A stretch of 63,229 bases of DNA, counting the filler, from Rhabdomonas costata (lineage: Eukaryota): assembly GCA_019059605.1 (NCBI GenBank). It is 39 parts of 39 records of this genome, joined end to end, with 100 filler letters (N's around TTAATTAATTAA, not from the genome) between each part and the next. Parts side by side here need not be neighbours in the genome. Positions count along the whole stretch, not along the records: positions 14,628 to 16,152 come from JAHMHO010013832.1; 38 more parts are not named here. One strand, written 5' to 3'. A model generated the notes under the pieces. That model did no database searches, was not told the origin of the DNA, and was given only the letters and a program-made list of their open reading frames with translations. The position numbers and the translations under genes were made by a program. Positions 8,017-56,736 of the stretch are shown here, piece by piece; positions within the stretch are counted from its first letter, which is position 1; the number at the start of each line of letters is the position of its first letter.

Positions 8017-8169
8017 CCCCCCACNNNNNNNNNNNNNNNNNNNNNNNNNNNNNNNNNNNNNNNNNNNNTTAATTAATTAANNNNNNNNNNNNNNNNNNNN
8101 NNNNNNNNNNNNNNNNNNNNNNNNGGAGGTGTGGGTATGGGTATGGTTACGTTGGGTCATGGTGGTGCT

Positions 8170-8530
8170 AGGGTGCGTAGGGTGGCTAGTGTTGGCGATG
8201 CAGGGGCTGTTGGTGGTGCGTTTGGTCCGTAGTCGGTGTCGTTGGGTGCTGCGTGTCGTACTTCGGTGTGGCTTTGGGTGTTGGATATGTGGTGCTTGTC
8301 GGTCTTCTGTCTGGAGGTCAACCATGTCGAGTCTCTGTAGTGGGTCCTTGTTGCTAGTTTCGTGGGTACGTTGGTGTGGTCCATGGGAGGTGCTGCTGCT
8401 TCAACTTCATCTGTTCAATCGGTATCGCAGTTGCTTGGTAGCCGGGTTTTGGGGCGTCAGGGTCATACATAGGGTGTGTTTGTTGCTGTTGCTGTAGGGG
8501 TATTGTATTCGTGCGTAGGGTGTCAGGATG
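8170..8530 (+). pseudogene. nad5: Heavily decayed mitochondrial nad5-like fragment
   Basis: Across frameshifts and in the correct order: GWLVLAMQG (~WLpdAMEGP), SVSQLLG (~STxSQLG) about 240 nt later, then GH...AVGVLYSCVGCQD (~H...GV.IH...G.QD). Confidence 0.4.
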
Positions 8531-9156
8531 TTGGGTTAGGGCGTTGTTGTGTGGGGTTTGTGCTGTCGTTGCTGTTGATGTTGCTGTGCTTGTTGTAGGC
8601 TACTGTTAACCATGCTCACTCTCAACCATGCCGTACCCGTCAACCATGCTCTCCGTCTCCTGTAGTTGTACCTGTGGCTGTGTCTGTACCTGTTCCTCTT
8701 ACTCTATACGTGTGTGTATCTGTTCTTGTTGTTACTCTGTGTGAACCTGTTGTTGTTAGTGCTTGTGCTGTGGAAGTGTTGTTGGGCTGATGGTATGCTG
8801 GTGTCAGGGTTCAGGGCTAATGTTATGCTGGTGTCTGGATCTTGGGCCAATCTCGTGCTGGGCTAATCTCATGCTGTTGTTCTTCTGCTTCGTGTTACGC
8901 GTAATGGTAGTGTTCGTGTTAGTGTTACTGTGCGAAGGTTTAGGGTTAGCGTTACTGGTAGTTTGGTTGTTGGTGCTTAGCGTTACCGTTACTGTTACTG
9001 TTGTTGTTGTTGTGCGTAGGATGATGGCTTGTTGTGTTGAGGCGAAGGGTTAGCGTGGTATCGTGTTGGTCGAAGCGTCGTTACTGTTAGGTCCGAGGGG
9101 TTGTGTTGTCATGCCTTGTGTTAGTGCTTGTCCTGTTGTGTGTCCACGTATCTGTA

Positions 9157-9458
9157 CAACCAGATCCCCACACCAATACACCAGATCGCACCACGAGACA
9201 ACGAAGAGCCATGCAACAAACAACGGATCATATGAGAATACACGCACATGAAGAACACAGAAGCACCATTCGCATGAAGACCGCACAACACCACCCCAGC
9301 ATCCAATTCCCAACCCACAGCCACCACACTCGAAAACGCTCGGCAGAAGGACAATACCAACACGCAAGCACAAACCCCGTAGCCAATTGCACACCCACAC
9401 ACATTCCCGCACAGAACCCCAATGACTAGCCTGGAGACAACAACGCCGTCGTACTATA
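9157..9458 (-). pseudogene. cob: Mitochondrial cytochrome b N-terminal fragment, with a frameshift and an in-frame TAG
   Basis: Reads YSTTALLSPG*SLGFCAGMCVGVQLATGFVLACWYCP, then after a frameshift AFSSVVAVGWELDAGVVLCGLHANGASVFFMCVYSHMIRCLLHGS...IWCIGVGIWL. The heme-ligand region HANGAS..F..vY.H is clear. Confidence 0.88.
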
Positions 9459-12182
9459 CGCCCTCTTAGATACTACTTGCAACACAGCGAAAGAACCCAG
9501 CAAACAACGGAACCTTGACCCCGAACCCCGAAACCCGAAGACAGAATGCCGAATGCCGATACGCCGATACCCTACGCTCCTCAACTCGCAGACACACATG
9601 CACCCAAGAACTCAACCCAACCCCGAAGACAGAAACCAATGGATAAGAACAATNNNNNNNNNNNNNNNNNNNNNNNNNNNNNNNNNNNNNNNNNNNNTTA
9701 ATTAATTAANNNNNNNNNNNNNNNNNNNNNNNNNNNNNNNNNNNNNNNNNNNNGGTGGTGTGTGTTTGCGTGTGTGCTTGTGCTGTCTTGGAGTGAGGAA
9801 GGTCCCTCCGTTGACCTTCCGGTGAGCGCAAGTCCACAGCGTTCACCTGTCGATAGGAATTTATGTACAGCCTTCAGTGCTTTCACGTTTGTGCGGACAC
9901 GTGTTGCTCAGGTATGCTTGTTATTCTGATTTTTGCGGAATAAAGATATCTTCTTGTGAATTGCCCCAGTCCTGAAAGTACCGCATGAAGGCTTTTGGCA
10001 GAAATTCGTTTCGAAGAGGAAAACAAGGGCACGCTGCACACCCCTTTCATTTGATCTGAACGAGTATTTACTACACGCATTGACAGTCCTTTCTCTTATC
10101 GCTGTTCTGTGGGTTCTACCAGGTGGGCCTAGCTAGCCTCTGCAGCCGGCCTCTGGAACCTCATCAATCGTCGCGAACCTCATTGGAAATGTGGAGGGAG
10201 GCGGAGTGGGACCACTTATTTCGGCCCAAAACCTCGCCCCATTCGCTGGGTGACATCCGCGGTGGTCACTCCCGGACCGGACCGGACCGGACCAAACAGG
10301 AGACCTAACATTGACCTCAGATCCTGAGCTGGAATGATGGGTTGGGGCTCAAATTTGGTGGTATGGTAGTACTCCTGGGATGATTTGGTTGGCCGCTTCC
10401 CGGCTTCCGAATCCTAATCTACGCCGAGATATGGCCCCATCAACTCCTTTCACTCGAAAAACCCTCTAACGAAATGCACTTTTGGCCAAATGACCTTTCC
10501 GGCCATTCCCACGTGAGCATTGCTACGTTTTTCCATGCACAATACCCGTTGTCTTTTTCGGGCTTTTCTTCCTGCTTTTGGTTTCCTTTGGTACCGCTTT
10601 TCACCAGCGGACAATTCGACTTGTTATGAAATTTTCTACCCCATTAGACCAAAACTGCATGAATCTATGCATGAATAATTGGAAACCCCCTTTTGCAAGA
10701 CCAAAACCCCCATCCCCGCAAAACTACCGAATTCGATCAAAAACTTAGGCCAATGAATTATTGTAAATATTTCCCATTCTTTTCATGCAAATTCGCCTTC
10801 CTTTTCCAAGTTTTCAAACTTTACTCCAACCTCTCAATTTCCTTTTCCTAATCCAAAAGGAACACTCGTTGCAATGTGTTTTTTGTTCCATCTAACGCTT
10901 TTATTTTGGGATTGGGGAAGGACTTTTAACTAAATTTCCACCGAAATCAGCAAAGTATTTTATAAAGTGCGTTAGTTTCAGTAAACCGGTCCCCCCGCCA
11001 ACACGAGGTTCGGAAAACCGAGCCCGATCATTTGGCTGGGCTTTGTTTTTCTCGTTATTTGCGCCTTTTGTTGGAGTAGCCGCGGGTCAGCAAAAAACCG
11101 CGAGCGGGGGAGGGGTCCCTGCGAGCGCCAAAAAAACGTGTACTCCACTAAAACGCCCACAAAAGCAAAATCCCGACCCTTCCTCTTCTACCCCAACCGG
11201 ACCAGTTGCCAGCTTCCAGCCTAGCCAGGTTGGCGGCTTACCGGGCCAAGGGTGCACCCTTTTGACCGCGTCCATGGTNNNNNNNNNNNNNNNNNNNNNN
11301 NNNNNNNNNNNNNNNNNNNNNNTTAATTAATTAANNNNNNNNNNNNNNNNNNNNNNNNNNNNNNNNNNNNNNNNNNNNTTTTGTTTTGTTTTGATTCATT
11401 GTGTGCCTGTGAGTTGCTCTCCTGCTTGCTCGCCTCAGGTGGTGTGTGGAATATGTATTCTGCCCGAGGGGAGCATTTCTTCACCTACACAAACAGCACA
11501 CATCAGCGGATTGATCTTCGAACTACACAGGCTCTCGAGGGCTGGATAACCTTCGCTTGCCTTTGGATGGTTCGGTTGCCTGTTGCGGTGCATTGCTTTC
11601 TTGGAGGTTCTCCCGAATAGGTCGGATCGTGCGCGTGCGAGCATCGCCGCGCTGACACCTGATTAGTTCTGCCCAGACTAGTTGACCTGTTAGTTCTTTG
11701 CTGTAGGTGAGTAGCAAAAGAGCTCAATGTGGCCTATCACGCAGCTTCAATGATGCGTATCGAGATAGGCTACGCCAACAGTTCGGTTGCGGGCAACGAA
11801 AGGCGAAAAGCGATGCTTGAATTTCCAATCCAATGAACATGGAATGATGGAAAATTTTCGCTGGTAAGGACATAAAACATAGATATGGGAGCTCCAAGGG
11901 TTTTTACTGTCGCATTCGGCAACCAGAGTATTCGTCTCTCCTGCGGATGAGTTTGGACCCGGTGGCATCGCATTAATTTGTGCCTTTGTTTTCATGGAAA
12001 TGTGCCTGCCCAAAACTATGTCATTCTATGCTGGCCTGGAAAACTCGCTTAATTTCATGCCATTATTCAATCAATGCCCAGAGGGAATTTTCAGTCTTCT
12101 GTTGTTTGTCAGTGCTCCGATTTCCTGTATTGTGGTGTTGTTTTCTTAACCGTCGTTAGATCCGTGAGCAGTCCAGATCACA

Positions 12183-12684: not shown

Positions 12685-14637
12685 GTACATCCTCCCTCTT
12701 TTGTGACTTGTGTGACTTTCTCCCGCGAGATGTTTCTGATTTCCGTGTTACGGCGGCGGCTTTCTGGTTTGCAAGGGGTACGTTGGGGCTGCAGGTCCAA
12801 TGCCCTTTCTTGGAGGATCCTGCACGAATAACAAGTCATTAAACATCCGTTCTGGAGGAGGGCGGGATTTGTACAAGCAAAGAGAATAGGCGACCACAAC
12901 AANNNNNNNNNNNNNNNNNNNNNNNNNNNNNNNNNNNNNNNNNNNNTTAATTAATTAANNNNNNNNNNNNNNNNNNNNNNNNNNNNNNNNNNNNNNNNNN
13001 NNATGTGGTGGTGTCCCTCACCAGGAAGAGGACGAAGAAGTTGAGAGATGTCGAATAGATCTGAGGATGGAGGCAGGATCGCGGTAGGAGTAAGTAAGTG
13101 AGTGAGTGAAAGAGTAAGTAAGTGTGTGTGCGTGTGTGCGTGCGTGTGCACGTGCGTGGAATATCCACGTGATCGATGCGTCTAGGTTCTGTGTTTGGCT
13201 TAGTGGTTTTCTTAAGATGTCGAAGAGCACAGGCTTGCGGACTTCATGGACGACTTTTGGATGGCCGGCTGAGAATGGCCTTCGTCCGTTTGAAAGGCCT
13301 TTTTCTTTTTGAGCTCAAACTTACGGCTTCCAGATACGAGAAGATGATGTATCCAGGAGTCTTCGTTCGTTGTGTTTGCAGTTAACCTCCGCCTCCCAGC
13401 TTGCCTTCTCAGTACGGCGTTCAAGATCAATTATTGCGCGAAAGGACCTTCCTGAGTAGGCCTGCTACGTGTATGTGTTTCCAGATTTCATTTTTTTTTT
13501 TGCAAAGAACCAGAAACCGGCCGTACATCTTGCTATTTTGCTTCATGTGCAAGTTTGCTGTTTCTTTTGGCAGTCTCTTGACAGGGCTGGAGCCAGCATC
13601 CACAATCCCTGTGTGGTGTTCAATACCACGCCCTGCTTCGAGGTGGATTTAGGGCTCACATATGGGATACTCTGCCTCCGCCGCATGGCTGCGGAGGGCA
13701 GCCCATATAGGAGGCATTGCACAGGATGAGCGTAAGACATCCTTGAACGCGTGCTACACAGTGGGGGGGAGGACCCCGGTGTTCTCGAAGCTGAGCTATT
13801 CGGGCGAGTTCGGGGGAGAAAGGGTGAACCCCATCCCCCAGTTCTCTACCTCATCGCTGCACTTCGGGAAGAACGCAAAACACGAACCCCACACAGATGC
13901 ATTGTTCACCACAGTGCTCAGTCCTACTGTGCCATACACAGTTAGGACTTGTGTGACTCAACAAGGCAGAAAAAAAGGACAAAAAAGAGGGAGAAATTCG
14001 TCAGGGTGACGGAGTCGCCCAACTCTCTGTTCCCAAGGAAGGCAAGAAAAAGGGTCAGTGCAAGAGCACTGGGGTGTTGCGCGCCCAGTGGAGCAAGACT
14101 CCCCTGGGCGTCCCCCCCAGACTCCGTCACCCCAGGGGACACAGAAACAAAAGTGAGCAAGTATGCCTCCCCCGACCGTTGCCGATCCTCTCTCCAGAGG
14201 AAAGTGGAAAGGCGGGCCTGGGTACAGGCCAGAAAAATAGACACGGACGCGCACACGCGAACCGCAGACACACACCAAATACCAAGATCGAGCATTTCAA
14301 AATTGCCTGTTCAGGTGTGCCCCTCCATCTTTTTAAGTGGGCCCTTTAAAAAACGGCCAGAGAAAAAGGGAGAAGGGAGCTTAACGATTTCATACACTGC
14401 AAGGCGGTGCTGGAAACGGTCAGGAAAAAGGCATAGAACAATGGGAGTGAGAAGTTGTCCTCCAGAGTGCAAGGAGGCCGAGGTCACACGACACCATAAG
14501 AGGGGGTCATCTGCTTGCCAACCAAAANNNNNNNNNNNNNNNNNNNNNNNNNNNNNNNNNNNNNNNNNNNNTTAATTAATTAANNNNNNNNNNNNNNNNN
14601 NNNNNNNNNNNNNNNNNNNNNNNNNNNTGTGGTTGTG

Positions 14638-15270
14638 GATAGGAACTATGGGTCGTGTGTGTAGGACGGTATGCTTGGTGGTGATCCAGTTTTGTAGCAG
14701 CATCTCTTTTGGTTATTTGTGCATACTGAAGGATAGATAGTTATCTTACACATCTTTGGCTTGGTGTCGGGTTCTTTGCGCTATGTGTCTGGACGTGAGG
14801 GTATGGTGTACTGTATGTCTGCTATCGGGGGTTTCGGCTTCTGCGTATGGGCTCATCACATGGTTATCGTTGGGCTGTATGTGTATTCTTGTGCTTAGTT
14901 TAGTGCTGCGACTTCTGTGGTGTCGATTCATACTTCTGTCAAGGTGTTTGTAGTTGGAATCTCTCCTATGTTTTCCTGCTCCTATTGGTTCTGCTGCTGT
15001 GTGGTCGTTCTTGGCTTTCTTGGTGTGCTTTACTTCGGGTGGATTTACGTGTTTTGTGCTGTCTTTTGCTTCCTTGGACATCACTCTACATGATAACTAG
15101 TTTGTTGTTGCTCACTTTCATACGGTGCTTTCGTTGGAGCTGTGTTTGGAATGTTTGTTGCGTTGCCTGGGTTTTTGTTTAGTGTGTCGATCTGTGATGG
15201 TGCTGCTGTGCTTCAAGCGTTTCTGTTGACTCCTGGTGCTTTTCTGGTGTTCGGTTCTATGTATTTCGCG
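14638..15270 (+). pseudogene. cox1: Mitochondrial cytochrome c oxidase subunit 1 internal fragment (euglenid-like), with 6 in-frame TAGs, 2 frameshifts and block deletions
   Basis: Reads DRNYGSCV*DGMLGGDPVL*QHLFWLFVHTEG*IVILHIFGLVS...GREGMVYCMSAIG..G..VWAHHMVIVGLYVYSCA*FSAATSVVSIHTSVKVF / *L...[44 protein letters not shown] / GAVFGMFVA...GAFLVFGSMYFA. Cox1 motifs appear in the expected order. Confidence 0.97.
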
Positions 15271-21163: not shown

Positions 21164-21615
21164 CATTCGGTGTTGGAGATGTTGTGGACGGTGGTGCCTG
21201 TTGCGTTTTTTTATTTGTGGTTGGTGCATGGGGTGGCTACGTTGTATGAGGTTACGGGTGGTGTAAATATGGTCTTCTATGGTCGTCTTTTTGTGGGTCT
21301 GTTGCTTCTGTGGTGGTTCATCAATGGTATTGGGAGCTGAAAGGTGTGAATTATCAGTTGGTTGGCAGTGGCGCGTTGGATCTGGTTATGGTGCGTATAT
21401 TGCTTTGGTATCAGCCCTTGTTTGTCGCGTTTGGTTCCTCAGTTTGTCTAGCGGTTTCTAGAGTGGTAGCAGTTGCCTGTCTTGGTGTGAAGTTTGATGC
21501 CGTTCATGGCCGCGTTTCTCGGGTGTGTGTGGTTAGTTCTTCGGTTAGTGCGCTGAGATTTTTGGTCCTACTTTCTGTACGGCTTTGCGCGCACAAGTTC
21601 GTATACATTTGTTAG
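21164..21615 (+). pseudogene. cox2: Mitochondrial cytochrome c oxidase subunit 2 fragment, frameshifted, CuA motifs damaged
   Basis: HSVLEMLWTVVPVAF...TLYE (LE..WT..P helix), then after a frameshift VVVHQWYW...LGVKFDAVHGRV. The DVxHS and CxExC motifs cannot be read. Confidence 0.9.
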
Positions 21616-23286
21616 CATTCTGTCTCCTTCAATTACAGCTAACGTAATGGAATGGTCCATAGGAGGATGCCGAATGACACAGTGGCCACAGAGGGTGACG
21701 TGGAGAACACTCACTGCTAAATCACCATCAAACACATCTTCCACCATTGGGAGAGTGGCAACCGCACATCTTCAGGTGTTGGAATGGGACGATGATGGAG
21801 CGGGTTGTTAGAGAGACGCTGAGATGCACCATGAAACCTTGCTGATGGCTGAGCTGAGACACCCGCTGCACATCGACCTCCAGACCGACTGGGAGTGATA
21901 GTGGAGAGTGACACCTGCTACACCGTTGGTGGTGAGTGGGGACAGAGAGTGAGACCAACGTGAGACAAACGCGCCACTCACTCTAACCATATACCACCAC
22001 CACAGAAGATAGGATATCTACTCCTACTGAGGTTGTTGAGAGATGGCAGCAACCGCATGTCAGAGGGTGAGAGCATGCCTCTATGTTAGAGTTGATGCAA
22101 TGCCAAGCTGAGGACATGATGGGTGTATGGAGTGGCGGTGGATGCAAGATAATGGTGGGACACTGGAGTCTATGGTTAGTGTCATCGGGTATGCTTTTAC
22201 TGCGTGAGCCCCAAACACTTGTGCAGAGATTTTGAACTGGACAACACTCCAGAAGCTCTAAAGCCACACAGTACAGCAACACACAACATGCACTTACCAA
22301 GCACTTAACTTACCAAGCACTTAACTTAACAAGCACTACCAACATCCTTACATCCAACCACCATGAGGCCAGCAATCCACACATCGTATCACTCGACACC
22401 ATATGACACTGACACACACAAAGCACTAACAAAGCACTACAGACAGAGAGCATGGTTGCAGGGAGCATGGTTGAGACGGACAGCAACACCAACACCACAC
22501 TATAGTCAAGGTGACGTACACACTCTACTACTAGGGTAAACCACGCCTAGGTTGGAGAGGAGATGACAATATGCCCTAAGCTAGGATGACAACACCCTAC
22601 TACCGATACACTCTGTAGCACAATACTACACAAGTTACACAACACCNNNNNNNNNNNNNNNNNNNNNNNNNNNNNNNNNNNNNNNNNNNNTTAATTAATT
22701 AANNNNNNNNNNNNNNNNNNNNNNNNNNNNNNNNNNNNNNNNNNNNGGTTGGTGTTTTCTGGTGTTACTTCCCCTGCCACTGCGGCACATCCGTAACTCC
22801 AGAGTCCTGCTCTGCTAGTGATCCGGTGCTTTTCCTTCGGCCATGCCGATGCTGTCATCTCACTAACGGCTCTTTCATCGGCTGCAGGCTTTCTCAATCT
22901 TTCTATTGTACCGATAGAGCCCATTCTGTTTTCGTCCGAGTGAGGGAGTGGTTTTGTCCATTGAGAAGAGGGGAAGCCGCTCAAGTCATGGCTGCCGAGC
23001 AGTCTGAGCCAAATCAGGTTGTCGTACTGCACGCTTTCACACGGCTCTGTTCCCTTCCCTCGCCTCGCGCATTAAGGTGAACCTCGCCAACACCCTTCTC
23101 CTGTAGACCCTGTCCTGCATACTATTCCGAGCACCCTCCACTCCCTGGTCCTGTGATAGACTGGACCTTTTCAATCGGGGACCGCCCTCGCGTTCTGGTG
23201 AAGGGTAAAGCCGGTAGCAGAGAGCTTCATCACAATGCACTTTTTCGCCATCTTTGGAGGTGTTTTGGCTGGTGGGATGCGTTCGG

Positions 23287-31307: not shown

Positions 31308-32494
31308 GACCCCATGTTCCCACCGTGTACACCATCGCTTGGCTCCTCTCCCTGGTAAACTCTGCGGTATAATTGCATTTGATTTCCTACCCTTCCCGAC
31401 AGTGTTTTGGCTGCCTACGGGCCCCTTGCTCTCCTAGAAAGTGGGGCCCACTGCATTTTTGAAACCCATTCCTCGTTCCCACTCACCCGCCCACTCACGC
31501 TGTCCCTGTTACTGCGTCCCAGCGCCTTGGTTCTACGAGGTTCACACAGTTTGCATTGCGCCATTCCCTCTTTTGCTGTCCACAACCACCCACCCCCTCT
31601 GGGCACCACGGCATGTGGGGATGAGTGAGTGAGTGGGCAACGCTCCCTCCCCACTCGCGCCTTCCAGCCTTGGGATTGCTCTTGAAATGGTGGGTATGTA
31701 ATGTCTGCGTTCATAGAAGAGATACTTTCCTCCTGCAATGTCTTCACAACTCAAACTTTGCCTTTATCATGTGCTGCATTTGTGGGTTATGTGAGCTTGA
31801 TGTTGGTTCTGCTTTGGACGACCAGCTGCATTTGAGTTTTCGCAGAACCGATATGTAACTGTGACCTGTTTAACGCTCACAACATCTGAAAGACTGCAGT
31901 GATCAGTGAATTGTGTACCCCCCCTACTCGGAAATGGTACTGTGTAGTGTAGGCACAGTTTACAAGCGACAATGCCAACCCAGAGAGACATACAAAGTAG
32001 TTCTGTCCGGGACTCAGCCCCTGCTCAACCGCACCCTTCATCAACATGGACCGAATCGGTTGTCCAGTAATTCAAAACACGCGATTTTAAAGCTTGACTT
32101 TGGTTCAAAATTTCTCGATTTTTTTACCCTCACCAGTCAAAATTTGCACCCCCTTTGTGGCCACGTCCCCTTTCCGGGACGGCGACATAGAGTCGGCGGG
32201 GGGAGGGGCTCAGGCCAACAACAAAAGTCTGCGGTTACCCAGCCGACCTGTCAAAATGAAAACGGCCCAAAATCCAATAAAGGACAAAATTCGAGAAAGG
32301 ACAAAATTCGAAAGAAGACAAAATTCAACGAAGGACTGCGTCCAAGGAAGACAAACTTCGGAAGGACCAACCCACAANNNNNNNNNNNNNNNNNNNNNNN
32401 NNNNNNNNNNNNNNNNNNNNNTTAATTAATTAANNNNNNNNNNNNNNNNNNNNNNNNNNNNNNNNNNNNNNNNNNNNTGTTTTTTGGACTCAAA

Positions 32495-33220
32495 TTGTGA
32501 AGCCAAATCTGTCTCTACTAAGATCGTAACAATGGAGCAGACATGGAGGTTGATCATGTGGCACCAGTGCAACTAGTCCCGGATTAAACTCCGAAAAACT
32601 CCACATATAGCCTCGTCAAACAAATGTCCGTGGTGGGTTTCGAATCCACGGATCCCACTCAGTCTCTACTGATACTGTAATATGTGTGTGACCCGTGGTG
32701 GTAATCATGTGACGTCAATGCAAAGAGTCGCTGATTCAACTCCGACACTTCACATATAGCCTCTTCACACAAATGTCCGGGGTGTGATTTGAATCCATGG
32801 AGATCACCCAGTCTGTATTAATTATGTAATAATGGAGCATACTTATGGGTGTGTAATAATGTGGCACCCTTGCCAAGAGTCGCGGGTTCAACTCAGACAC
32901 TCACCATATTGCCTAGATTTTGGAATTTCCGGGGTGGTATTCTAATCTAGGTAGCCGACTTAGTCTCTACTAATGTAATAAGGATGCACAATTAGGTGGG
33001 GTGTAAGTATGTGGAAAAACTTGCCAAAAATAGCTGGTTCAACTACAAAACTCCGCGCATAGCCTCTTCACACAAACAGATGGAGTAAGATTCGAATACA
33101 TGGAGCCAACTCAGTCTCTACTAAGATTGTAAAAAGGAGGTACACATGGGGATAAGTATGTGTCACTTACGCCAAGAGTCACGGGTTCAACTCCGTGACT
33201 CACCATATCGCCTCGTCCCA
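32495..33220. repeat. Degenerate tandem repeat, ~150-bp unit, about 5 copies, with tRNA T-arm-like motifs
   Basis: CAGTCTCTACT-like anchors recur at about 32510, 32660, 32810, 32961 and 33112. Units carry variants of GGTTCAACTC on + and GGATTCGAA-like motifs on -. Confidence 0.85.
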
Positions 33221-35503
33221 CGGAATCACAGGTTATTGAGGTTTATTTCTAAGCAAGAGCTTGGTGCGACAGTATGGAGGAGAGTTTCAGAGAGTTTTAG
33301 TGAAGAGCTGATTAAATATCTTTGCAGACCGCAGTTCGAAGTCCACCATAGTGGTCTCTTGATGCATTTCGAGTGCATTTTGAAAACCTTCTACACGGTG
33401 TGGGGGATGAGAAATGTTCACAGTATGATGCCTGAAGAAATGTAATGTTGCGTCTAACTGTGTAAAGATCCATTTGTCCAGTTTGGTTTTGAAGAAGAAG
33501 TTTTTATAGCGATTTGTTACAATTTGATTGTGAAACCTTGAATTGACATGATTTCTTCATAGAGACATCATCAGCTACCGATGTATTTTACTGTAGATGA
33601 GTGGGATACAGGGTCATTTGACCATAATGATTTTGCTTTTTAGTGGAGTCCTTAGATTTTCAATGTTAATATTTTCACGGTTTGCCATGTGTGTAATTGC
33701 TGGAAGTTTATGACGTGATATTCTATCAGATTTAGCTGCCGTAGTAAGCTTTGTGCCTTGTATGCTTTCATGTTGCCTTTTCCATGAATCCTGGTTCTCC
33801 TTGGGCTGCTGAATTATCTCTATGCATTGGATGCACCCACCAATGTGATGCAGAGCTAAAGTGTGCTCTCTCGTCGTTGAGATCGACTACATACTGCTTC
33901 AAGGTGCAGCAACAGTTTACCACACTACAACGTTGGTTTATCCAGGAGTGTTTACCAACCACGCGCTGAGCTGCTTCTTTCATCTTCAAGACACAAACAC
34001 ANNNNNNNNNNNNNNNNNNNNNNNNNNNNNNNNNNNNNNNNNNNNTTAATTAATTAANNNNNNNNNNNNNNNNNNNNNNNNNNNNNNNNNNNNNNNNNNN
34101 NTGTGGTGGGTGTGGTTGGGGGTGGGGGTTATACATATTTATTATTTGCAAATTGGCGACCCCTCATTGGGGTCCCTCCAGGTCGAGGGGTTATGAATAG
34201 TTATTAACAGATGTGGGAAGAAAGCAGGACGGTGTAAGTCGTCGGGGCACCAACGCGCGGAGGAGGCCAGACGTGCGGGGCTGTATGCGCACAGGCGGAG
34301 AACCACAGACGTGAAAGGGAAGGGAACTTGTCATATTCCAACCCCTCCCTCTCCCTCTCGCTCGTGCTCACAACCTGTCGTAATGTGTTCTTGGTTGTTG
34401 CTTGGGTTCAGGCTGTGGTGGCTCAACGGGGCGCATCCGCATCTGGGAGAAGAGTTCCGAAGACGGATCGCCGGGGCAGAGCAAGCCCGCAGCCACCGAT
34501 GGAGCTGTTCCCCCGATGGCCCGATGGTGCGCCACCAGCAGCGGCTCCCCAACCAGCAGCGGCCCCGGTTTCTGCAACAGTCCGGGTCCCCAAGGCGTTG
34601 ACGAGAAACAGGAAATGGGAGGACAGGTCAGGCACATGGGGGCGAATCCGGTCTAATTCGAAGCGGATCCTGCAACGAGCTGCTGAAAATTGCACTGGTG
34701 CACGCTCCCGCGTCGCAAAAGACGTAACTGCAAACCCCAATACTGCCGACAACCTCTCTTAAATAGGGAAGTCCGAATGCTCTCACCTCGCGTCTCGTTC
34801 TTTCCTTCGTGCTTCCCATTTCAGCCCACTCGAAGGTCACGCATATTCAGCTTAAAGCAGTGCCAGCTCAACAGGCCTCCGGCGCCTAGTCGGCCGTGGG
34901 GGCTTGCGCTCGCAAGGACCCAAAGACAAAGTCAAGGAATGGGCACAAATGATAATTCAAGTGGACGTGAACAGAACCTCTCCCAATTGCCGTATCTCAC
35001 TGAAGTGCTCGTGATTCAGTCCAATTTCAAACCCTTTCTCTGGCGCGTGGGGGTGGTTCCCTCGTCTCACTTTGGACATGTTGGCATCTTTTTGCGCTTT
35101 GGTGTGTTTGCGTCTCTGCGTGCCCTCCTCCCGATTTACGGGGTAGGGCGGCCGTTCCCATAGTGTCTGCGCCCACTTGACCTAAATGAAGACCACTTGC
35201 TGAGCGGTCAAATAGCCCTGTCGCCGGTTTGAGCGCCCCAACACACACAACACTCGAAAAGAGGCGGATGTCCACAACCAATATCATCTCTTTGCCTTTT
35301 TTAAAACCAAAGTTTTTGGCAAGATTACTTTGGGTTGGCAGCAGGTAGAATTTGCCAAACTTCTAGCCGCCCACATCTCGCCTGACCGTGACCTTTTCCC
35401 CCAATCTTGCATTCTCCAGATAGCCGCTCCCTTCTGATTTTAGTCTATACAGCTCCGCAGAAAATCTCGCCGCGTAAACTCATTATTTTCTTCTTCTCAG
35501 TTA

Positions 35504-47224: not shown

Positions 47225-47225
47225 A

Positions 47226-47256
47226 TTTTTTATTATTATGATTTAATAATAAAAAA
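47226..47256. terminator. AT-rich hairpin just downstream of the RING-like gene's stop codon
   Basis: TTTTTTATTATTA / TAATAATAAAAAA, a perfect 13-bp stem with a 5-nt loop. Confidence 0.55.
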
Positions 47257-47261
47257 ATTGA
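47254..47261 (+). promoter_or_regulatory. AAAATTGA, Mimiviridae-type early promoter motif
   Basis: Exact octamer about 100 nt upstream of ATG 47360, in AT-rich intergenic DNA. Confidence 0.55.
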
Positions 47262-47359
47262 AAAATAAAAATACTGCACAATATACATACAACAACATAA
47301 GCAGATTCCTTTGGAACCAAAAAGCTCTTTTTGTCCAAGCCTTAGCAAATCGTAACGAG

Positions 47360-48178
47360 ATGTCGTCTTCTCTGCCAGAGATTGCCCCAGCCCCAACTGC
47401 TGTCTTTTCTTTGCGTCAATCGCGAACTATGGACCGACCTCAACAAATCCGAGATTTGAGCATAGCCAGTACAGTTAGCACAAACAGTAATGTATCACGT
47501 GCGTCTACGACAATTAGACATAAGCGCTTGTTGTCGAGAAAACAGATTACCGACAATTACATTGACGTAAAAATGGACACTAAAACACTTATTAAACAAA
47601 AAGAACAGAAGATTTATGAGCTATTTGGGGAAGTAAAATCTACCAACGGTCAAAACTTCGGATTTTACTTGACGTTAACCGCTTTGATTAGATACTACAA
47701 CAAGTTTGTGAAGACTTGTGGAGTTACATCCTTTTTCGAGTATGATATGGGACCAGAAGAACAGCTAACTTTTGTTGGGCACGACGATTTTAACAACGTG
47801 TTTGACAAAATCAAGAATCTGTTTAGCAGCATTGAGAGTGATGGAAAATTAAATCCTTTCACAAAGATTGTTATCATGACAGAAGCAATCTATGCAGCTT
47901 ACTGCCAACAATCGCGCGAGAAGGAGCGATCACGTCCTAATCCACGGCCTCGTTTCCCACAACATGAATCGTCTCCAACAGCAACTTATCAAACACCGGT
48001 CGAAGAAATCACAGCTATTGCAAGAGAACCACGAGCCGAGACTCGTGGTTTTGCAGTACTAGAGCGCGATGACAGCCTCCGACGAGATTCAGAACAAATG
48101 ATGGCTCGAACAAGGCGCCAGAGAGATAGACATGGGCCATGCACTTATAAACCTCCCATGTCTGCGTCGTCTAATTAG
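47360..48178 (+). CDS. Intronless hypothetical protein (272 aa), probable giant-virus ORFan
   Basis: Longest clean ORF in the window, ATG 47360 to TAG 48178, with no introns, flanked by the motif and hairpins. No family recognised. Confidence 0.75.
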   Translation: MSSSLPEIAPAPTAVFSLRQSRTMDRPQQIRDLSIASTVSTNSNVSRASTTIRHKRLLSRKQITDNYIDVKMDTKTLIKQKEQKIYELFGEVKSTNGQNFGFYLTLTALIRYYNKFVKTCGVTSFFEYDMGPEEQLTFVGHDDFNNVFDKIKNLFSSIESDGKLNPFTKIVIMTEAIYAAYCQQSREKERSRPNPRPRFPQHESSPTATYQTPVEEITAIAREPRAETRGFAVLERDDSLRRDSEQMMARTRRQRDRHGPCTYKPPMSASSN

Positions 48179-55108: not shown

Positions 55109-55523
55109 CCAANNNNNNNNNNNNNNNNNNNNNNNNNNNNNNNNNNNNNNNNNNNNTTAATTAATTAANNNNNNNNNNNNNNNNNNNNNNNNNNNNNNNN
55201 NNNNNNNNNNNNTGTTGGGTGTGTGTGGGGTTTGTTGCGGATTGATATTTCTAAATATCCCACCTACTCCGACCGATCTTCCCTCTTAAGCCACCGGATA
55301 TCATACATGTTGTACTGTAGTGCTAGCTCCAGAAGTCCTCCAGACAGAGAGGCAATTAGCCTACACGGGTAATTGAAGGCGGTCGTGATAATCATCTGGC
55401 ATTGTCCACGGTACGGTCCCAACTGTGCCAATAGGATGAATGCTAGGAGGAAAAGGGGTTTTGGTATGATAAATCAAGCATCCGGATTATTAGCTAAGTT
55501 TATATACGCTCAGCACCCTTGGC

Positions 55524-55610
55524 GCCCGCGTGGCGGAACGGTAGACGCTACGGACTTAAAATCCGTTGGGAGTTGATCCTGTGCCGGTTCGAGTCCGGCC
55601 GCGGGTACCA
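55524..55610 (+). tRNA. trnL: tRNA-Leu(TAA), bacterial type, CCA encoded, no intron
   Basis: Acceptor stem GCCCGCG/CGCGGGT, anticodon arm ACGGA-CTTAAAA-TCCGT, long variable arm, GGTTCGAGTCC, ends ACCA. Confidence 0.95.
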
Positions 55611-55617
55611 TCAAAGG

Positions 55618-55689
55618 GGCTCGGTAGCTCAGTGGTAGAGCACCAGACTGAAAATCTGGGTGTCGCCGGTCCGATTCCGGCTCGAGCCA
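55618..55689 (+). tRNA. trnF: tRNA-Phe(GAA), bacterial type, atypical T-loop
   Basis: Acceptor stem GGCTCGG/TCGAGCC, TAGCTCAGTGGTAGAGC, anticodon arm CCAGA-CTGAAAA-TCTGG. The T-loop reads TCCGATT rather than TTCGA, and the 3' end reads ACCT. Confidence 0.9.
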
Positions 55690-55711
55690 CCTCTTCAATT
55701 ACCTTCGCAAC

Positions 55712-55999
55712 ATGACAGAGCTAAGTGAAGCTGTAGAGAGCTTACTACAAAAACGATTGCAACCCCAAAAACTAGAAGTCCGCATGCGTTCTTCTCAAGA
55801 CCAAGATGAGAAGTTGTCGCACGACAGATACGTAAATATATACATAGTATCTGAGCACTTTGCTGGTTTGTCTGTAGTAGGAAGACATAAAAAAGTCTTT
55901 TCCATCATTGAAAAAATGATAGGAGAGCTGCAGGGCCTCACCATCACTACAAAAACTCCGAAAGAGGAATCCGAGCATTCCTCAGCCAGCGCACCATAG
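55712..55999 (+). CDS. bolA: BolA family protein
   Basis: L.P.KLEV...IYIVSEHFAGLSVVGRHKKVF.II......QGLTITTKTPKE matches the BolA pattern iVS..F.G....RH..V...iHAl.i.t.Tp.E. Confidence 0.85.
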   Translation: MTELSEAVESLLQKRLQPQKLEVRMRSSQDQDEKLSHDRYVNIYIVSEHFAGLSVVGRHKKVFSIIEKMIGELQGLTITTKTPKEESEHSSASAP

Positions 56000-56269
56000 C
56001 ACAACCCTGCGAGCTATAGATCCATACCAATGCACCCTATATCGGTGCTAGCGGCCCGGAAAACTTTCATCTGTATGGTAGAATCTCCGCGAGCCAAGTT
56101 GGCGACTTATCCTGATTTTTGCCAACAAGCAAGGGAAGTCGGTAGGCTAAATGTACTGGACTTACGACATGAGAAACCGGGTTGTGCCGCATGGCCAAGA
56201 CACCAAAAGCGCAAGCAGGGCAGTAGGTTTATCATTGGTTCAGAGACTTCTCACGCAGGAAGAAAGAAG

Positions 56270-56736
56270 ATGGACAGCACAAAAGAAATCCTGGATGAAT
56301 TAAATGATAAGGGGGCCAAGTCGCTCCAAGTACTCAAAGACTAGCTAGCCGGCATCAGAACAGATAGAGCATCTCCATCTTTCTTGGGCGGAGTCATAGT
56401 AGTCTTAGATGGCGACAATAAGGTACCAATTAACAAGCTCGCCAGCATAACCACTTCAGGACCAAGGATACTGAAAGTAAAACCTTTCGATAGCCACCAC
56501 CTCAAACCCATTGCGAAAGCCATTATGTCAGCGGATTTGGGTGTAAATCCTATGGAAGGTGGTGAAGGAACACTAAGTATAGAAATTCCACACCTGAGCC
56601 AAGATAGGCGAAAACAGCTCGTGAAGATAGCACGCAAGCACACGGAAGAAACAAAGCAGACTATGAGAAACCTAAGGCATACAGCAATAGAGAAAGTTAA
56701 GAATTTGACGAAACAAAAGCTCCTATCCAAACCACA
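56270..56736 (+). pseudogene. frr: Ribosome recycling factor, 3' truncated by the contig end, in-frame TAG at codon 25 (56342-56344)
   Basis: AGGA RBS-like site, then MDSTKEILDELNDKGAKSLQVLKD*LAGIRTDRASPSFL...VPINKLASI...LKVKPFD...KAIMSADLGVNP...IPHLSQDRRKQLVK.A...EE.K..MRNLR. Confidence 0.9.

Follow-up and report, generated by a model that had tools for sequence, protein, structure and literature searches.

A decayed cox1 copy in Rhabdomonas costata and its G:C>T:A-rich pattern of change

Results

Broken mitochondrial genes among the contigs

The window (the whole stretch of DNA analysed, 63,229 nt) consists of 39 unrelated contigs of about 1.52 kb each with N-linkers between them. Broken mitochondrial genes were found on three of the 39 contigs: cox1 on contig 10 (14628-16152, ~1.5 kb), cob on contig 6 and cox2 on contig 14 (Table 1). 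When all six frames of contig 10 were searched against Pfam, COX1 was matched in two of them (E=5.6e-12 and 5.9e-9) and no other family was found. A frameshift-aware alignment places residues 207-427 of P0124, an intact full-length cox1 of 495 amino acids, at 14629-15264 across two frames, with identity at 156 of 208 aligned codons. G and T together make up ~70% of the coding strand, and the G+C content is ~48%.

The closest proteins are intact cox1 sequences of euglenid type, with P0001 at 75% identity and P0124 and P0129 as cluster members; the nearest named match, that of Dinema validum, is 60% identical. P0129 is a product of 1127 amino acids on a 7-kb contig, where cox1, cob and a cox3-like part share one stop-free open frame; in P0011, cox1 and cox2 are likewise joined in one open frame. 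The top PDB match of P0124 was chain C1 of 8IUF (E=4e-179; runner-up, 5e-123), which we take to be from Euglena gracilis. In a metagenome scan with P0001 for intact DNA of close relatives, the best 80 of 598 loci were general cox1 sequences at 37-52% identity, and blastn of those 80 loci gave matches of merely 55-115 nt at 71-80%. Scans with lineage-specific patterns returned no match in viral contigs and none in genome contigs. Intact genes were seen in relatives only, and since the closest intact protein is just 75% identical, we infer the ancestral codons of the cox1 copy.

In-frame TAG stands for Tyr. All eight aligned TAG codons (cox1 and cob together) stand opposite Tyr, and TAG fills eight of the 13 Tyr columns that have a codon; TAG is thus placed only at conserved Tyr columns, as a UAG=Tyr code predicts. 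The aligned cox1 frame contains no TGA and no TAA. We rejected an origin of TAG from TAT through T>G damage, since the remaining two-codon amino acids have not moved in parallel: codons for His, Phe, Cys, Asp and Asn are not shifted to a G ending. A mitochondrial code with UAG=Tyr and UGA=Trp has been published for Rhabdomonas costata, and the available text of that report describes cox1, cox2 and cob as complete genes in the DNA assembly and gives no sign that they are edited (PMC8219788).

Table 1. Features of the window discussed in the text (coordinates along the whole window).
Feature	Start	End	Strand	Evidence and remarks
3' piece of cob	8209	8367	+	Contig 6, as the 5' part, on the opposite strand: scrambled arrangement
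Broken 5' part of cob	9154	9500	-	Pfam cytochrome b, contig 6; frameshift near 9335; R>W, R>C
G/T-only run at start of contig 10	14628	14638	+	Probably primer-derived
Decayed 3' half of euglenid mitochondrial cox1	14638	15264	+	Pfam COX1, frameshift alignment; residues 210-427 of P0124
Lesion cluster around HPEVY motif: G>V 14719, P>T 14725, V>G 14731, P>H 14749	14719	14751	+	Columns conserved in 38/38 references
15-nt in-frame deletion: five codons, residues 257-261 of P0124	14778	14779	+	Placement approximate
Lesions D>Y 14878, D>Y 14884, R>C 14890, P>H 14929	14878	14931	+	Invariant columns
2-nt deletion (frameshift) at invariant Ser319	14950	14950	+	Ser in 38/38; frameshift alignment; placement approximate
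G>C 15050 (G353C) and L>F 15053 within 10-nt G/T-only run	15049	15058	+	
1-nt deletion (frameshift) at Leu381, back to first frame	15134	15135	+	Placement approximate
9-nt in-frame deletion, residues 391-393	15162	15163	+	Placement approximate
G+T-rich, mitochondrial-looking DNA replacing last ~68 cox1 codons	15265	15627	+	G+T 0.66-0.72
55-nt non-coding element in contig 10	15732	15786	+	87% identical to 22560-22614 (-), cox2-bearing contig 14
Broken cox2: frameshifts, G>V, P>H, C>F	21125	21566	+	Weak Pfam COX2, contig 14
Diverged ~151-nt tandem array (control, not part of a gene)	32490	33221	+	Contig 21; 4 whole and 2 partial units

Lesions in the cox1 copy

We compared the copy with 38 intact cox1 references, leaving out P0008 and P0023, which are not euglenid-like (at most 51% identity), and called a column invariant where at least 95% of the references agree; 72 aligned columns qualify. 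Codons at gaps and frameshifts were dropped before counting, and three Val codons opposite L207-L209, in the primer-like start of contig 10, were excluded from every count. Twelve of the 72 invariant codons are altered, each by a single base: eight by G:C>T:A (four G>T and four C>A), three by C>T and one by T>G. Besides the clusters listed in Table 1, these lesions include T>N at 15095 and the C>T-type changes P>S at 15256 and H>Y at 15262. The His and Tyr of the HPEVY motif are retained, the Tyr encoded by TAG, and His ligand motifs and TAG-Tyr codons are likewise kept in the aligned part of cox1.

The original prediction named ten altered cox1 codons, and all ten lie exactly where it put them. 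Nine are real lesions in columns conserved in 38/38 references; the tenth, F>V at 14863, proved to be no lesion, and Val occupies this column also in the closest intact relatives P0124, P0129 and P0002 (3/38 references). The accompanying estimate of about three C>T changes is matched by R>C 14890, P>S 15256 and H>Y 15262, with S>F 15065 (C>T) added only when the threshold is lowered to 85%. The missing multi-codon blocks and 1-2 nt indels were found as well, all four indels being deletions (15, 2, 1 and 9 nt).

The alignment stops at 15264, and the last ~68 cox1 codons were not found in the remainder of contig 10. The G+T-rich DNA in their place was tried as cox3, and this candidate was dropped, with a score of 49 against 54 for the control and no PDB match. 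Another piece of mitochondrial-looking DNA lies at the start of contig 3 (3251-3900), where G+T reaches 79% and the sequence is joined to A+T-rich DNA; Pfam and PDB searches of this piece were without match, and its sole cox1-like match was weak (E=0.007).

The cox1 copy thus combines the marks of a pseudogene: it is frameshifted, truncated and shortened by deletions, and it has lost invariant residues. Measured against its relatives, replacement changes amount to about 7 per 100 replacement sites (dN-like 0.07). The lack of a TAA stop in the aligned part and the lineage-specific Val among the ten named examples would also suit a working, very divergent cox1, with odd residues that are lineage-specific and frameshifts that are sequencing errors. 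However, in a leave-one-out comparison over the 38 references, 30 intact genes show no departure in invariant columns, six show one and two show four, against 12 in the copy, and a working gene is also hard to reconcile with two frameshifts, the loss of two blocks and the lack of a 3' end. This explanation is already largely refuted and has only a slender chance of being correct.

Broken cob and cox2 copies

Over 8125-9653, short tandem repeats and G+T-rich DNA lie between the two cob pieces. Two of 30 invariant cob columns are altered, neither by G:C>T:A; cob references beyond P0216 were left out of this count. Two cob changes had been put forward as part of the same pattern. The change given as RGL>RCL is R>C (TGC at 9285), a C>T transition, and the supposed P>T is lineage-wide, the Thr of YSTT being common to 28-30 of 35 references. 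For cox2 the original prediction fared better: G>V at 21316 (G in four of five references) and P>H at 21505 were borne out, as judged against only 3-5 distant references. A further change, C>F at 21561, was also seen, and all three are of the G:C>T:A class; other differing cox2 columns are mixed or misaligned. No DVLHS motif is recognisable in this copy, and none of 485 candidates passed E<=0.001 in a search for cox2 homologues. Because only 3-5 distant references were at hand, cox2 was left out of the statistics.

Spectrum of changes

Since counting replacement changes alone favours transversions, changes were weighted by replacement opportunity at the 72 codons. Of these opportunities 17.6% are G:C>T:A, as against 8/12 of the changes (P=2.3e-4; 0.0014 when corrected for six classes) and about 9/16 at the 85% threshold (P=0.0015). 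Eleven of the 12 changes start from G:C, where 51% would be expected (P=0.004). The excess of G:C>T:A over C>T in cox1 (8 vs 3) is not significant (P=0.17; P=0.27 with cob added), and A:T>C:G, that is T>G, accounts for one change in 12. Of the G:C>T:A / T>G bias originally proposed, the first half is therefore real and the second comes down to that single event.

Two controls are independent of codons. The 55-nt non-coding element that contig 10 shares with the cox2-bearing contig differs between its two copies at seven sites, and G<->T or A<->C accounts for five of these (P=0.045). A second shared element, of 39 nt, links the cob contig (8620-8658) with the cox2 contig (22441-22476) at 82% identity (E=5e-4). 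The tandem array on contig 21 is without mitochondrial features, and it may not be of the same organism, because the window includes at least one bacterial-type contig (contig 35). In the array we counted departures from the majority base, leaving out columns with gaps or without a majority base. The 94 departures comprise 29 G:C>T:A, 24 G:C>A:T, 4 G:C>C:G, 15 A:T>G:C, 12 A:T>T:A and 10 A:T>C:G, so that G:C>T:A stands at 29/94 against 17% expected (P=6e-4, with units that are not independent of one another). Here too, G:C>T:A does not differ significantly from C>T (P=0.29). The cox1 copy is richer in G:C>T:A than rates in the array predict (8/12 vs 33%, P=0.016; with cob, 8/14, P=0.05). By eye, some motifs of the array resemble a tRNA T-loop; ARAGORN and Rfam made no call over 32490-33221.

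Because the shared element (5/7) and the array (29/94) show similar patterns, the G:C>T:A bias looks like a property of unselected DNA. G:C>T:A is enriched on both strands, as expected where MutM/MutY-type repair of 8-oxoG is lost, with G>T and C>A at 4:4 in cox1 and 13:16 in the array. The A:T>C:G enrichment that loss of MutT would bring was not seen in cox1 (1/12) or in the array (10/94, not above the other A:T classes, 12 and 15). The pattern shown is thus one of G:C loss with transversions at least as common as transitions, and not a combined 8-oxoG/8-oxo-dGTP signature, because A:T>C:G is a single event in cox1 and the excess over C>T is not significant. As a cause, 8-oxoG is suggested by the class of change only, and the 8-oxo-dGTP half of the original proposal found no support in either count.

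Contig ends and amplification

At the 5' end, 26 of 39 contigs begin with a G/T-only run of at least six bases, and 32 of 39 end with a C/A-only run. Such runs are expected from amplification with G/T primers, which is probably their origin. Near-perfect inverted repeats at contig ends (35504-35621, 48435-48614 and 50342-50500), probably fold-back amplification products, were seen in contigs 22, 30 and 32; fold-backs and near-perfect repeats at contig ends were not taken as mutation controls.

These features bring into play an artefact of whole-genome amplification or assembly, through primer misincorporation, oxidation during preparation or chimeric joins. Most contig ends indeed carry primer-like runs, three contigs hold fold-back inverted repeats, G353C lies inside a 10-nt G/T run, and amplification could have produced the join after 15264 as a chimera. 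However, only one of the 12 changes falls within a G/T-only or C/A-only run of seven or more, the region has no C/A-only run of six to explain the four C>A changes, and the changes are 92 to more than 600 nt from the contig start. Without G353C, G:C>T:A still makes up 7/11 changes (P=9e-4). A single consensus carries G>T and C>A in equal number (4:4), both fixed, unlike what damage to a single template strand should leave, and damage would be expected to yield neither 9- and 15-nt in-frame deletions nor differences between tandem units. K-primer misincorporation, which the original prediction named as a possible refutation, explains at most one of the 12 invariant-site changes (G353C), and an artefact is very improbable as the source of the pattern.

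Other contigs hold genes of different kinds. Contig 35 (55213-56736), probably a bacterial contaminant, encodes BolA and a ribosome recycling factor as well as tRNA-Leu(TAA) and tRNA-Phe(GAA). A fragment at 38151-38711 matches a P-type cation ATPase domain (E=1.2e-12), and an A+T-rich contig has an open frame of 317 codons at 47225-48175 that matches the PBECR4 nuclease family only weakly (E=1.2e-4, under the cut-off).

Editing as an alternative

The more exciting alternative originally raised was a cryptogene whose transcripts an unknown editing system would mend through transversions and insertions. Sister groups do edit their mitochondrial RNA (PMC4700960, PMC12699882), and the retained His ligand motifs and TAG-Tyr codons of the aligned cox1 would fit a gene still in use. 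Repair of the 12 changes, however, would need four U>G, four A>C, three U>C and one G>U conversions, and none of the 12 is of the C-to-U, A-to-I or G-to-A types described for diplonemids in the available text of PMC12699882. U insertion alone could not restore the invariant Ser319 from a lone G, nor could it restore missing blocks whose conserved residues include His and Tyr, and ~68 C-terminal codons are absent. Non-coding DNA carries the same bias. With none of the 12 repairs of a known euglenozoan type, and with complete, unedited genes reported in two euglenids (PMC4700960, PMC8219788, as far as their available text goes), this alternative is unsupported, and we give it almost no credence.

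Discussion

The sequence on contig 10 is very probably a rearranged copy of a working euglenid mitochondrial cox1, in which TAG stood for Tyr, that has decayed without selection. This is also how the original prediction preferred to see it: unselected gene copies with a G:C>T:A-rich spectrum are supported by the 12 invariant-site lesions, the deletions and the broken cob and cox2. A piece of a working cox1 would first have undergone duplication or rearrangement and come to lie beside other DNA of mitochondrial type; this shows in homology that ends inside the contig at 15264 and in a non-coding element shared with the cox2 contig. Freed from selection, the copy would then have gathered its ~7 replacement changes per 100 replacement sites and its four deletions. 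These changes would follow the background pattern of unselected DNA, in which G:C pairs are lost on both strands and G>T/C>A loss is at least as frequent as C>T. The pattern is seen in cox1, with echoes in cox2, in the shared element and in the array but none in cob. The underlying chemistry would probably be unrepaired 8-oxoguanine together with cytosine deamination. Judging from relatives and the literature, the copy itself presumably makes no protein, and an intact copy elsewhere would do the work.

Where the decayed copy resides is a more evenly balanced matter. We lean slightly towards a mitochondrial pool of gene fragments, rather than a nuclear NUMT, as its location. A mitochondrial pool fits because cob is scrambled, non-coding pieces are shared, and three of 39 contigs carry broken mitochondrial genes; nuclear copies fit because a non-mitochondrial array has a similar spectrum.

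The spectrum had been described as unusual, which is overstated, because G:C>T:A and C>T are common sources of the A/T bias of eukaryotes (PMC6330053). According to the same source, in the part available, oxidised guanine is the usual origin of G:C>T:A and, with deamination, of this general bias. Laboratory lines of Caenorhabditis elegans show more of these changes in their mitochondrial DNA than are found in the wild (PMC12958816, available text). In the literature searched, which leaves out most subscription journals, no paper dealt with the mutation spectrum of euglenids or with their 8-oxoG repair, and within that literature such a pattern is seen in a euglenid for the first time here.

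A bolder reading is that the lineage has lost or weakened its 8-oxoguanine repair (OGG1/MutY type), so that its unselected DNA, whether of mitochondrial origin or otherwise, decays with G:C>T:A as the foremost change. This is hinted at because G:C>T:A leads in cox1, cox2, the shared element and the array. R. costata is a facultative anaerobe with the same code, and its predicted mitochondrial proteome in the supplement of that report (PMC8219788, in the part available) has no entry for oxoguanine, MutY, OGG1, 8-oxo or MutT and a single glycosylase (endonuclease III), which is a weak hint in the same direction because the table covers the predicted mitochondrial proteome only. We consider repair loss unlikely. 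If true, it would make dead mitochondrial copies the record for a first spontaneous mutation spectrum of a heterotrophic euglenid.

Dead mitochondrial gene copies in Euglena are already known, and the code with TAG for Tyr has been published. Should the spectrum hold across the many copies of this genome, an under-sampled group would gain a measured mutation bias, and a testable question would arise on oxidative DNA repair in a facultatively anaerobic protist. Contigs of this kind mimic RNA editing, and both cox1 barcodes and the inference of genetic codes can be corrupted by them.

Nuclear copies of mitochondrial DNA (NUMTs) show single-base decay of invariant residues, a deletion bias and a mitochondrial code frozen in. 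The cox1 copy resembles them in its single-base decay, deletion bias and frozen mitochondrial code, and in having a spectrum like that of non-mitochondrial repeats; Pfam searches of the six frames of contig 10 brought up no flanking nuclear gene that would mark a nuclear location. The mitochondrial DNA of Euglena gracilis, in the available text of the reports on it, holds pseudogenes and fragments beside full-length genes and no editing (PMC4700960), and it shares with our contigs broken, scrambled cox1, cox2 and cob and common non-coding pieces (PMC4700960, PMC8130358). The E. gracilis lineage also has full-length, unedited genes (PMC4700960, PMC8130358). Unlike that of E. gracilis, the DNA described here, which is only putatively located in the mitochondrion, has a G+T-rich coding strand, TAG for Tyr and a piece of ~630 nt with many point lesions.

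The contigs resemble the heterotrophic euglenid R. costata, as described in the available text of PMC8219788, in placing TAG where Tyr is conserved in cox1 and cob; the cox1 copy is broken, unlike the complete, unedited genes of that report. In mutation pattern, the copy is like A/T-biased spontaneous mutation (PMC6330053, in the part available), with changes mostly from G:C, G:C>T:A and C>T in the lead and G:C>C:G rare, and unlike the full 8-oxo signature, as neither the cox1 copy nor the array has a matching excess of A:T>C:G. With the editing systems of kinetoplastids and diplonemids it has in common the phylum and a DNA that, as it stands, encodes no working protein. Unlike the U-indel editing of kinetoplastids and the C-to-U, A-to-I and U-appendage editing of diplonemids, as covered in the available text of PMC4700960 and PMC12699882, its restoration would take transversions, U>C changes and blocks of mixed bases.
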